From: Acidimicrobiia bacterium
GTDB taxonomy: Bacteria > Actinomycetota > Acidimicrobiia > Spongiisociales > JAENVV01
Assembly: GCA_041628225.1 (NCBI GenBank)
Contig: JBFKPQ010000001.1
Span: 85,597 to 149,596, forward strand
Reading direction: 5' to 3'
DNA: 64,000 bases
Shown piece by piece: positions 11,689-15,133 of the stretch. The notes beneath the pieces were generated by a model. The model did not search any database. It was given only the letters and a program-made list of their open reading frames with translations, and was not told the DNA's origin. A program made the translations under genes and the position numbers. Positions within the stretch are counted from its first letter, which is position 1; each line of letters begins with the position of its first letter.

Positions 11689-12165
11689 ATGGATCTGGTG
11701 ATGGTCGTCGAGATTCCCAAGGGGAGTCGCAACAAGTATGAGATGGATCACGAGTCCGGCGAGATCTTCTTGGACCGGATGCTGTTCACGGCCACCCGGT
11801 ATCCGGCCGACTATGGATTCATCCCCGAGACCCACGCCGAAGATGGCGACCCGCTCGACGCCCTGGCGCTCGTGTCGGAACCCACGTTCCCTGGCTGCCG
11901 GGTGCGGATCCGTCCGATCGGTTTGTTCGAGATGGAAGATCAGGGTGCCCCCGACCACAAGGTGCTGGGCGTGCCATTGGGCGACCCCGTGTGGCGGGAC
12001 GTTCTCGACCTCGACGGAGTGCCGTCGCATCTCCTTCATGAGCTCGAGCACTTCTTCGCCGTGTACAAGGACCTCGAAGACAAGAAGACCGCCACGAAGG
12101 GATGGCACGACGCGTCCGTGGCGCATCGGGTCATCGAAGCCTCCCACGCCGCCTATCGCGCCTGA
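11689..12165 (+). CDS. ppa: Inorganic pyrophosphatase
   Basis: 158 aa family I PPase: EIPKGSRNKYEMD, DPLDALAL, LGVPLGDP, KDLEDKK. Confidence 0.9.
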   Translation: MDLVMVVEIPKGSRNKYEMDHESGEIFLDRMLFTATRYPADYGFIPETHAEDGDPLDALALVSEPTFPGCRVRIRPIGLFEMEDQGAPDHKVLGVPLGDPVWRDVLDLDGVPSHLLHELEHFFAVYKDLEDKKTATKGWHDASVAHRVIEASHAAYRA

Positions 12166-12204: not shown

Positions 12205-13776
12205 ATGACCGACGAAGCTGCTGCCGAAGACACCCGAGGCACGACCACCTCGGCGTTCGGGGTGGGCAAGCGGGAGAACCACGATGCTTCGGCGTTCTAC
12301 GCCCGGTTCACCGCTCCCGAGGTGTCGGACGACGACACGCTGGGCCCACGTCCGAGCGAGCTGGAGCTGCCCGATCCGCCGTGCATCGTCGGCGACGCCC
12401 GCAACATGGCGGCGGTGCCCGACGGTTCGGTGGCGTTGGTCGTGACGTCACCGCCGTACTTCGTGGGAAAAGAGTACGAGCAGGCCGTGATCGGCACGGG
12501 TGAGGTCGCCCGACCCGAGGTGCCGCGGTCGTACGTCGAGTATCTCGAGATGCTGCGCGACGTCTTCGCCGAGTGCAAACGGACGCTCGAGCCGGGCGGA
12601 CGGATCGCCGTCAACGTCGCCAACCTCGGCCGCAAGCCGTACCGGAGCCTGTCCGCCGATGTCATCCGCATCCTCCAAGACGACCTCGGACTGCTCCTGC
12701 GCGGCGAGATCATCTGGCAGAAGGCCGACGGAGCGTCCGGATCGGTGGCGTGGGGATCGTTCAACAAAGCCACCAACCCGGTGCTGCGCGACATCACCGA
12801 GCGGGTCATCGTGGCCTCGAAGGGTCGGTTCGATCGAGCTCGGTCACGCCAGCAGCGCATCAAGGACGAGTACCCCCACGAGAACACCATGCCGGTGGAC
12901 GAATTCATGGAGGCGACCCTCGACGTCTGGCGTATCGATGCGGAGAGCGCCCGTCGGGTCAAGCACCCGGCACCCTTTCCGGTGGAGCTGCCGCGCCGGC
13001 TCATCGAGCTGTACACGTTCGAAGACGACCTGGTTCTCGACCCGTTCCTCGGCTCCGGCACCACACTGGTCGCGGCGGTCCGGTCGGGACGGCGAGGCGT
13101 CGGTTACGACCTGGACCCGGACTACGCGGAGATCGCAGCGCATCGCTACCGGGCCGAGCAGAAGCGGCATCGGCGCCAGCGTCAGACCGAGAGCATCCAC
13201 CAGGAGCGCCTGGCCCTCATGCTGCCGCCAGAGTCGACGCCCGAAGAGCGTGCCGACCACTTCCAGCGTCGCGCCAGCAAGGAAGGGAAGAAGGCTCAGG
13301 ACCTCGCCAAGCAGGTCCTCGAAGAAGCCGGCTTTCAGATCGTCGACGAGGCCTACAAACTGCCGCGCTCGGGAGTTCACTTCAACTTCCGCGTCGTCGA
13401 CGCCAACGGCGATCGCGACTACCTCGTCGATGTATCCGGCGCCTTCACGACTGCCCGCCCCGGCCTGTTGCGCACGGACACCCTCTGGAAGACGCTGGGC
13501 CGCGCCCACGTGCTCAAGTCACTCGACGAAGAAGCCCGCCTGCTCATCATCACATCGAACCTCCCGCGGCCCGGGTCCGACGGTGACAAGGCGTTGCACG
13601 CGGTCGGGCCGGGCAGCGTGTGGGATGCCATCGAGATGTTCGATGCCGACGGCGTCAACCGCCTCGAGTCGTACGCCGAGGGCCACGTCGACCAACTCCC
13701 TGGATTCTGGACGGAAAGCGAACTCGAGAGCCGTCGCGACGAGCAGGCGTCCCGCTACTGGCACGACGAAGAATGA
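12205..13776 (+). CDS. Beta-class DNA methyltransferase (SPPY motif IV, N4-cytosine/N6-adenine type) with about 180-aa uncharacterised C-terminal domain
   Basis: Motif IV VVTSPPYFVGKEY precedes motif I LVLDPFLGSGTTLVAA (beta-class order). Catalytic region ends near residue 340. Residues about 345-523 (..GFQIVDEAYKLPRSGVHFNFRVVDANGDRDYLVDVSGAF..LLIITSNLPRPG..) have no motif I recognise. A 6-bp inverted repeat ATCGTG-ccag-CACGAT overlaps the ATG. Confidence 0.85.
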   Translation: MTDEAAAEDTRGTTTSAFGVGKRENHDASAFYARFTAPEVSDDDTLGPRPSELELPDPPCIVGDARNMAAVPDGSVALVVTSPPYFVGKEYEQAVIGTGEVARPEVPRSYVEYLEMLRDVFAECKRTLEPGGRIAVNVANLGRKPYRSLSADVIRILQDDLGLLLRGEIIWQKADGASGSVAWGSFNKATNPVLRDITERVIVASKGRFDRARSRQQRIKDEYPHENTMPVDEFMEATLDVWRIDAESARRVKHPAPFPVELPRRLIELYTFEDDLVLDPFLGSGTTLVAAVRSGRRGVGYDLDPDYAEIAAHRYRAEQKRHRRQRQTESIHQERLALMLPPESTPEERADHFQRRASKEGKKAQDLAKQVLEEAGFQIVDEAYKLPRSGVHFNFRVVDANGDRDYLVDVSGAFTTARPGLLRTDTLWKTLGRAHVLKSLDEEARLLIITSNLPRPGSDGDKALHAVGPGSVWDAIEMFDADGVNRLESYAEGHVDQLPGFWTESELESRRDEQASRYWHDEE

Positions 13777-14093
13777 ACGGCGTCGCTTACGCGGTCGTCC
13801 GGACTGACCCACCGGAGGTGTACCTCGCCGACGACGTCGACATCCTCCAGCGGTTGCTCGCACTCGAACTCGTCGCCAACACCGACCCGAGAACGCTGAG
13901 CTCCGACGGTGCCTCCGACCTACGGTCGGCCCTCCTCGACGAGCGCTGGGCCGACGCCGTCGTCACCTGGATGGATCTGGCCGATACGCCGGTCGATGTG
14001 TACACGTTCCTGCCGGTGTTCTCGCGCGACGAGCTGCCGTCGGAGTTGATCGGCGCCCAGTTGCAGTTCCGCCGGCTGTTTCGCGACGCCTGA
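13773..14093 (+). CDS. Hypothetical small acidic protein (106 aa, no Lys, net charge about -12)
   Basis: ATG overlaps the MTase stop (ATGA). Continuous ORF with coding-like composition. No recognisable motif. Confidence 0.5.
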   Translation: MNGVAYAVVRTDPPEVYLADDVDILQRLLALELVANTDPRTLSSDGASDLRSALLDERWADAVVTWMDLADTPVDVYTFLPVFSRDELPSELIGAQLQFRRLFRDA

Positions 14094-14095
14094 CC

Positions 14096-15133
14096 GTGCC
14101 GACGCTCCGCACCGAGATCACGGAGATCGTCACCGGTCTCGGCATGTTCGACTACCCCGACCTGGGCCACGCCCTCGAGGTTCGCCCACGCCACTTCGCC
14201 AACGTGCCCGACGACGCGTACGAACGATTGGCCGCCGCGTACCGGTCGGGCACGGATGCGGGCCTCATGGCCCACGCCTGGGAGAACGGCGTCCGGTTCG
14301 CTCGCTCGATGGAGGGCCTGCGCGGCCGACCTCCGTGGCTCGTCGAGTGGAAGGGAAGCCACAAGCCGCCCGGCTACGAGCAACTGCCCGCGGACCTGCG
14401 CGTCGACCACGTGTACCTGGTGTCGTGCAAGTACGGGTCGAACATCCTCACCAATTCCTCGCCGGCCAACCTGTTCGACCGTGCCCTCGGCGACCGGGCC
14501 GACGGCACCGGAGACTGGTTCGCCGATGTGGCGCCCGACGCCTACCAACAGCTGTACGACGCCTGCCGTCCGCTCGTCGAGATGCGATTGCCCGACCACG
14601 TCACCGACCTCGACCAGAGCGACCGGGATGTGCTGAAGGCCGCCATGCCACGACGTCTGCAAGGTGAGGCACTCGTGGCGTACCGCGGGTTCGCCGACGC
14701 GGTGGCGGCAGCTTCGTCGGACCGGTGGTCGGCCGCGCTGCCGAACAGCCGCGCCCGAGAGCAGATGGTGTGGCGCCTGCTCCGTCTCGAAGCCGCCCCG
14801 TACTTCGTGCTGGGCGAATCGGCCGACAGCCGAGCGTTGGCCTACCGGGTGTCGACACCGTGGGACCTACGGGCGACCTACCGGTTCCGGTCGTTCACCC
14901 AGTGGGGCGAGACCGACCGCGGCCAGCCGGTGGTGGGGTGGCGGGCCGTGTTCCAAGACTTGGGGTCGGGTATCGAACGCACCGTCGAGGGCCACGTCGA
15001 GGTGCGATGGAGTCACGGCAAGTTCGCTCGACCACCGGAGGCGAAGGTGTACCTCGATACGCCGCACCATCAAGTCCCCGGCTACGTTCCCCTCGTCCTC
15101 CCGCGTGGCGACAACCTGTTCGGTGGGTCATGA
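14096..15133 (+). CDS. Hypothetical protein (345 aa) with a possible PD-x(n)-SxK nuclease-like motif
   Basis: GTG start 2 nt after the previous stop, and its stop overlaps the next ATG. Contains LPADLRVDHVYLVSCKYG, reminiscent of PD-(D/E)xK variants with SxK. That assignment is inference only. Confidence 0.55.
   Translation: MPTLRTEITEIVTGLGMFDYPDLGHALEVRPRHFANVPDDAYERLAAAYRSGTDAGLMAHAWENGVRFARSMEGLRGRPPWLVEWKGSHKPPGYEQLPADLRVDHVYLVSCKYGSNILTNSSPANLFDRALGDRADGTGDWFADVAPDAYQQLYDACRPLVEMRLPDHVTDLDQSDRDVLKAAMPRRLQGEALVAYRGFADAVAAASSDRWSAALPNSRAREQMVWRLLRLEAAPYFVLGESADSRALAYRVSTPWDLRATYRFRSFTQWGETDRGQPVVGWRAVFQDLGSGIERTVEGHVEVRWSHGKFARPPEAKVYLDTPHHQVPGYVPLVLPRGDNLFGGS

Follow-up and report, generated by a model that had tools for sequence, protein, structure and literature searches.

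The monomeric Type IIP restriction endonucleases HinP1I (G^CGC), MspI (C^CGG) and HhaI (GCG^C) carry a PD-(D/E)xK catalytic site in a first β sheet and use a second sheet for recognition. The middle position of the motif is non-acidic in HinP1I (SD-x18-QxK) and MspI (TD-x17-NxK), and both enzymes are reportedly active with Gln or Asn at this position. In Cfr10I, NgoMIV and Bse634I the site takes the form PD...S-x-K, and the carboxylate is recruited from elsewhere (in Cfr10I, S188-V-K190 with E204). In HhaI (SD-x11-EAK), D34 is located at the start of β2 and K48 at the end of β3, while E7, in the N-terminal helix and close to the second metal, contacts a water bound to metal (PMC7026639). Here we compare with these enzymes a 345-amino-acid (aa) protein encoded at 14096..15133 (+ strand) of a 64,000-nucleotide (nt) stretch of contig JBFKPQ010000001.1 from an Acidimicrobiia bacterium, the whole of which we call the window.

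The gene has a GTG start, belongs to a family without annotation and is a candidate Type II restriction endonuclease. Its linkage to a methyltransferase gene, the conservation of its motif, a resemblance in fold and a hidden Markov model (HMM) relationship to a restriction endonuclease (REase) model together make it probable that the protein is a monomeric-type PD-(D/E)xK restriction endonuclease of a new sequence family, cognate to an N4-cytosine (N4C) methyltransferase; its catalytic residues, monomeric action and recognition site are what we infer. A sequence-only reading of the window had described a protein of unknown function at 14096-15133 with the segment LPADLRVDHVYLVSCKYG. Both the open reading frame (ORF) and the segment were confirmed, and the suggestion that this might be a cognate nuclease gained support from conservation, from matches of relatives to the PADLOC model PDLC03456 and from family-wide linkage to the methyltransferase.

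The proposed catalytic segment LPADLRVDHVYLVSCKYG (aa 97-114; 14384..14437, + strand) has the form D-x9-S-x-K, a variant of PD-(D/E)xK, with D100 encoded at 14393-14395, S110 at 14423-14425 and K112 at 14429-14431. As a pattern alone, the PD...SxK signature that had drawn attention to this protein lies within chance: the loose form P-x-D-x(8-20)-[SDEQN]-x-K was found in 8.7% of composition-preserving shuffles of the 345-aa protein, and the exact form P-x-D-x9-S-x-K in 0.16%. The motif carries weight because of its conservation, which is strong down to 28% identity. In an alignment of 296 non-identical relatives with 28-75% identity to the window protein (median 46%), P98 was kept in 295/296 sequences, D100 in 294/296, S110 in 292/296, C111 in 290/296 and K112 in 292/296. 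Conservation in homologues had been put forward as a check on the motif, and D100, S110 and K112 proved nearly invariant; on this comparison, the segment holding them may form the active site. D104 was kept in 285/296 relatives and was otherwise Asn, and E84 was kept in 278/296. E10 (14123..14125, + strand), in the N-terminal helix formed by aa 4-15, was kept in 282/296 relatives, the rest being mostly gaps, and is a candidate for an extra acidic active-site residue.

A second near-invariant block, GHVEVRWSHGKFARPPEAKVYLD (aa 299-321; 14990..15058, + strand), forms a β hairpin in the C-terminal sheet. Among the same 296 relatives, G299 was kept in 290, E302 in 284, R304 in 291, W305 in 291, H307 in 288, E315 in 287 and K317 in 287, and P314 and A316 were also invariant. 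This block is either a DNA-recognition element or an alternative catalytic motif, E302-x12-E315-A-K317.

The family is large, with more than 3,449 members in a 90%-clustered collection and 508 clusters at 50% identity, all of them ~335-355 aa long, and its members are named hypothetical in every source. Searches of Pfam, NCBIfam, PADLOC, PHROGs and PDB sequences with the window protein returned nothing significant, and family profiles compared with Pfam, NCBIfam, PHROGs and PDB sequences gave no match. The REase_II model PDLC03456 of PADLOC ("Type II restriction enzyme", 387 positions) was matched by the window protein only at E 0.078 over 23 residues. Among diverse relatives, in contrast, 16 of 24 matched this model, all in the same place and in the C-terminal third only, the best being P0169 (E 2.6e-6, residues 221-329 against model positions 272-375). 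This match covers the C-terminal sheet and its RWSHG...PEAK block, so that aa 299-321 correspond to model positions 349-371, and nothing in the N-terminal two thirds, where the D-x9-SxK segment lies, is matched. The protein and the model thus share the C-terminal ~105 residues, in the same order, and have a similar total length (345 aa versus 387 positions). A homologue search seeded with P0169, the relative nearest to the PADLOC model, returned only "hypothetical" names. Neither PF11463 (HinP1I) nor PF09208 (MspI) was matched at E <=10 by the window protein or the 24 diverse relatives. Because neither HMM was matched, we do not place the protein in the HinP1I or MspI Pfam families, and the resemblance described below is one of fold only.

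AlphaFold2 prediction on a 44-sequence alignment gave a model with a predicted local distance difference test score (pLDDT) of 89.9 and a predicted template modelling score (pTM) of 0.86, the weakest stretches being aa 91-110 and 131-140. The N-terminal part of the model consists of the helix formed by aa 4-15, more helices as far as residue 70, a short strand (aa 83-84) and a poorly defined PAD segment. Next come strand 108-113, which has K112 at its end, and strand 117-121, the two forming a hairpin, and then a helical region of ~100 residues (aa 123-228). The C-terminal part is an antiparallel sheet (aa 236-332), in which strands 294-305 and 314-320 carry the second conserved block. The best structural match of the model was HinP1I, with MspI also listed, and the similarity to nucleases was weak. 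Fold prediction had been proposed as a way to expose a fold unrelated to nucleases; with HinP1I as the best match, weak as it is, the nuclease reading was not refuted. A Foldseek search of the model against the PDB found nothing. Against BFVD, Foldseek returned the uncharacterised phage proteins A0A8D9C8Y9 and A0A1J0F9H5 (517 and 571 aa), which offer no functional clue and are weakly similar (E 2e-4 and 2.6e-3; template modelling (TM) scores of 0.40 and 0.33).

Like HinP1I, MspI and HhaI, the 345-aa protein has a two-sheet design with a proposed catalytic site in its N-terminal part and a large second sheet, and its gene adjoins that of a methyltransferase. As in HhaI, the Lys lies at a strand end (K112) and a Glu lies in the N-terminal helix (E10), a correspondence that is suggested by the model and the alignment. 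The Ser at the position of the second acidic residue is shared with Cfr10I, NgoMIV and Bse634I, the kind of variant to which the sequence-only reading had pointed. In contrast, there is no detectable sequence similarity to HinP1I or MspI, the protein is ~100 residues longer than the three monomeric enzymes owing to the helical insertion of aa 123-228, its motif has Ser in place of Gln, Asn or Glu, and the spacing (x9) is shorter. The systems also differ in their partners and distribution: the partner here is a β-class amino-methyltransferase, whereas that of HinP1I, MspI and HhaI is a C5-cytosine methyltransferase, and the 345-aa family is lineage-wide and conserved, whereas the known enzymes are patchy.

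In the proposed mechanism, the 345-aa protein would act like HinP1I, MspI and HhaI, with the N-terminal helix and the small first β sheet carrying a PD-(D/E)xK-type site. D100 would bind Mg2+ and K112 would position the attacking water; with Ser110 at the second-acid position, the missing carboxylate would be supplied by E10 or E84. The C-terminal sheet, with R304-W305-x-H307 and E315-A-K317, would read the bases, and methylation of the site by the partner would block cleavage.

Linkage to the methyltransferase was examined in a scan of one genome per species, in which at least 593 genomes held a relative of the 345-aa protein. The best 80 were examined, nearly all of them Acidimicrobiia, and in 74 loci the flanks were long enough for the upstream gene to be judged. 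A methyltransferase adjoins the 345-aa family gene in 68/74 of these loci. The arrangement of the window, a methyltransferase with both of its domains followed by a small ORF and the 345-aa gene, occurs in 55/74 loci; the two-domain methyltransferase is directly followed by the 345-aa gene in 8/74, a methyltransferase lacking the C-terminal domain precedes the gene in 5/74, and in 6/74 no methyltransferase lies within 6 kb. Both solitary copies that were examined have the gene and its motifs intact, and one solitary gene (L077) lies beside carD on a complete 4.06-Mb chromosome.

The pairing holds in relatives at 28-45% identity. In P0265 (28% identity) a 316-aa methyltransferase is followed by a 340-aa protein, in P0169 (36%) a 314-aa methyltransferase by a 350-aa protein, and in P0201 (35%) a 505-aa methyltransferase by a 104-aa ORF and a 349-aa protein. 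P0399 has a 322-aa methyltransferase and then a 355-aa protein; P0417 has a 478-aa methyltransferase and then a 354-aa protein, with one genome in which the methyltransferase is divergently oriented. In locus L171 (1476-5065), a 509-aa methyltransferase lies on the opposite strand upstream of a 354-aa gene, and the two are separated by an 89-aa ORF. In the distant hosts of L083 (4001-6023) and L086 (3049-5053) the two-gene pair forms an island of low G+C (GC) content (46-48%, against flanks of 59-60%), which points to horizontal acquisition, and in the window, L085, L168 and L170 the GC content of the pair is the same as that of the flanks. No copies were found by tblastn of plasmid and phage collections.

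Next, the linkage was viewed from the methyltransferase side in 58 metagenome loci with at least 1.5 kb of downstream sequence. The 345-aa gene was present in 34/58 loci and absent within 3.5 kb in 24/58 (41%), namely L093, L095, L098, L125 and 20 others. The methyltransferase is therefore often solitary and the nuclease candidate rarely so (6/74), an asymmetry that is expected if the nuclease candidate needs the methyltransferase. The two genes diverge together, the 345-aa protein faster: where the methyltransferase is 95-100% identical the 345-aa protein is at 93.5%, where the methyltransferase is at 85-90% the 345-aa protein is at 73%, and the 345-aa protein then levels off at ~56%. Distant two-gene loci retain 64-69% identity in the methyltransferase, against 28-45% in the 345-aa protein; where the latter is at 28-36%, the methyltransferase is at 64-66%.

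The 523-aa methyltransferase consists of a β-class amino-methyltransferase domain (aa 1-335; 12205..13209, + strand; PF01555, 7.6e-40; PADLOC MTase_II, 2.7e-83) and a C-terminal extension (aa 336-523; 13210..13776, + strand). Motif IV of the catalytic domain reads TSPPYF (S82-Y85 at nt 12448-12459, + strand), and SPPY is invariant in 32 methyltransferase orthologues and in five distant two-gene loci. In N4C enzymes the DPPY motif takes the form SPPY (PMC10406627). Among PDB matches, 2zie (T. thermophilus TTHA0409) came first, and N4C enzymes then ranked above N6-adenine (N6A) enzymes. Since SPPY is invariant and N4C enzymes rank above N6A enzymes, the methyltransferase is probably N4-cytosine specific. 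It keeps at least 57% identity throughout, phylum-level transfers included, and is among the best-conserved methyltransferases of Acidimicrobiia. That it occurs without the 345-aa gene at this level of identity suggests that it has a role of its own, as an orphan or domesticated enzyme.

The C-terminal extension had no PDB or Pfam match. AlphaFold2 prediction of the full-length methyltransferase gave it an α-β-β-β-α-β core (helix 364-375, strands 378-385, 392-398 and 405-411, helix 424-440 and strand 446-450), a predicted topology like that of the restriction-endonuclease fold. Its catalytic set is incomplete: in the strand motif only D409 (in D-V-S411) is conserved, and there is no conserved Lys. 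The domain is missing in the pairs L064, L067, L076, L078, L082, L083, L086 and L168, and it persists in loci without the 345-aa protein.

CGCG and BAAAA methylation occurs in all marine Acidimicrobiia genomes studied (PMC8919816). The N6-methyladenine (m6A) enzymes for BAAAA were verified and are 32% identical to each other, and an N4-methylcytosine (m4C) motif, which we take for CGCG, was left unassigned to any enzyme in the two Acidimicrobiia genomes that were studied closely (PMC8919816). Because it is class-wide and of the N4C type, the window methyltransferase is a candidate writer of the class-wide CGCG m4C mark. It is unlikely to be one of the verified BAAAA m6A enzymes, given its SPPY motif and the >=57% identity of its family against their 32% mutual identity (PMC8919816). 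In the window and ~0.9 Mb of related loci, the only under-represented 4-bp palindromes were CTAG and, second, CGCG, with an observed/expected ratio (O/E) of 0.70-0.80. CTAG is generally rare in bacteria. Flanks of loci that carry the nuclease candidate and of loci that lack it gave equally low CGCG ratios (0.75 and 0.70), and the recognition site thus cannot be read from avoidance; possibly it is CGCG.

Several observations weigh against the restriction endonuclease assignment. Ser is no substitute for Asp or Glu as a metal ligand; aa 91-110, which hold D100, are modelled with the lowest confidence and are not predicted as a strand; and E302-x12-E315-A-K317 is as well conserved as D-x9-SxK. 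No palindrome avoidance specific to genomes with the 345-aa gene was found in the loci compared. Solitary copies exist without a methyltransferase within 6 kb (L032, L034, L061, L066, L071 and L077), and the family is more conserved and lineage-bound than usual for restriction enzymes, with at least 593 species genomes and no plasmid or phage copies in the collections searched. Part of this evidence would also suit a non-catalytic DNA-binding partner with a degenerate nuclease-like fold that serves the specificity, targeting or regulation of the methyltransferase: the second acidic residue is replaced by Ser, the resemblance to nuclease structures is weak, the sheet presumed to read DNA holds the best-conserved block and solitary copies are tolerated. 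We regard such a role as unlikely, as the near-invariance of D100 and K112 at 28% identity is hard to explain without catalysis, HinP1I and MspI, the nearest structures, are reportedly active with Gln or Asn at the corresponding position, relatives match an REase HMM, and the methyltransferase, often present and conserved without the 345-aa protein, does not need it. A different division of labour, in which the methyltransferase's C-terminal domain is itself the nuclease and the 345-aa protein a recognition or activating subunit, draws on the α-β-β-β-α-β order predicted with high confidence by AlphaFold2 and on D409, conserved in the third strand and followed by conserved R418, R423, D425 and K429. 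However, D-V-S lacks a conserved Lys and the start of the second strand a conserved Asp, several lineages have methyltransferase and 345-aa pairs without the domain, and the domain persists where the 345-aa protein is absent, so this arrangement appears quite improbable. Least probable, and very unlikely, is that the protein is unrelated and that its motif and its position beside the methyltransferase are coincidental. The loose motif does arise in shuffles at the rate given above and no curated family is matched, but subfamilies at 28-75% identity all show the adjacency, in genomic settings that differ, the divergence of the two genes goes hand in hand and the motif is invariant.

The lineage-bound distribution also bears on whether the protein, if a nuclease, serves defence. 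An endonuclease or nickase that has been domesticated for housekeeping, for instance in strand discrimination or repair, and that acts on the chromosome of its host under a class-wide methylation mark would have precedents in MutH-Dam and Vsr-Dcm. There, as here, a protein of nuclease fold is linked genetically to a conserved methyltransferase of the chromosome and the genes overlap or abut; vsr overlaps dcm. The 345-aa protein differs in that it has no structural or sequence match to Vsr or MutH, 41% of methyltransferase loci lack it, and an N4-cytosine mark is not known to have a repair partner. The near confinement of the family to Acidimicrobiia, with its spread over at least 593 species genomes, is consistent with domestication, as are a window cassette with the GC content of its flanks, local synteny kept within sub-lineages, the lack of plasmid and phage copies in the collections searched, a methyltransferase that stays at >=57% identity where the 345-aa protein has drifted to 28-36%, intact solitary copies of the 345-aa gene, and CGCG plus BAAAA methylation in all marine Acidimicrobiia genomes studied (PMC8919816). 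On the other side, two-gene versions elsewhere sit on low-GC islands like mobile restriction-modification (R-M) systems, the absence of the 345-aa protein from so many methyltransferase loci shows it to be dispensable, it evolves faster than its partner, and no repair-gene link was seen in the neighbourhoods examined. On balance we think a domesticated role distinctly unlikely. A specific version of it, in which an m4C-CGCG mark would be read by a domesticated HinP1I-like nickase with a chromosomal function, restrained by the acidic 106-aa protein encoded between the two genes and by the methyltransferase's nuclease-like C-terminal domain, we think improbable; it would amount to a lineage-wide epigenetic system based on m4C that serves strand discrimination, repair or replication control and not defence.

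Acidimicrobiia are an abundant class with few cultured members. If the 345-aa protein is a restriction endonuclease, several thousand "hypothetical" proteins would gain a function, and the small class of monomeric restriction enzymes would gain a new sequence family with Ser in the motif and an N4C partner. The pair would have to be reckoned with when transforming Acidimicrobiia and may yield a new enzyme specificity.

In the window, which has a GC content of ~67%, the 345-aa gene is part of a tight chain of genes. The inorganic pyrophosphatase gene ends at 12165 and the methyltransferase starts at 12205; the TGA of the methyltransferase overlaps the ATG of a small acidic ORF (13773..14093, + strand; 106 aa, isoelectric point (pI) 4.1) as ATGA at 13773-13776, and the TGA of this ORF (14091-14093) is separated by 2 nt from the GTG of the 345-aa gene. 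That start is backed by homologues, which share it and begin with Met-Pro-(Ala/Thr)-Leu-Arg-Thr-Glu. The 345-aa gene does not, therefore, lie directly downstream of the methyltransferase as the sequence-only reading had it, the 106-aa ORF (13773-14093) being in between. No sigma-70-like promoter was found inside the gene chain, and the only two terminator-like matches in it lie on the opposite strand and are not above shuffle expectation.

The small ORF, an accessory component, had no family match in Pfam, PADLOC, NCBIfam or PHROGs searches. Its 61 orthologues (median 110 aa) are always acidic (pI 4.05-5.07). It is commoner with the nuclease candidate (25/34 loci) than without it (7/24; Fisher p = 0.0012) and is also found with the methyltransferase alone (L093, L095 and L098). 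Its product may regulate or inhibit the nuclease. At its smallest, the conserved unit comprises the methyltransferase plus the 345-aa protein, with the small ORF and the C-terminal domain outside it. Of the proposed compact R-M system with two extra components, the R-M pair is thus supported, but the extras are not constant parts.

Downstream, a glyoxalase-like gene (PF18029; 15130-15552) begins with an ATG (15130) that overlaps the TGA of the 345-aa gene as ATGA, and because of this overlap the two genes are probably co-transcribed in the window. We rejected the glyoxalase-like gene as a part of the cassette, as it adjoins the cassette in 0/82 related loci tested, which have other genes there. 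In L001 and L002 its place is taken by an unannotated ORF of 208-225 aa, which in L001 apparently encodes a membrane protein.

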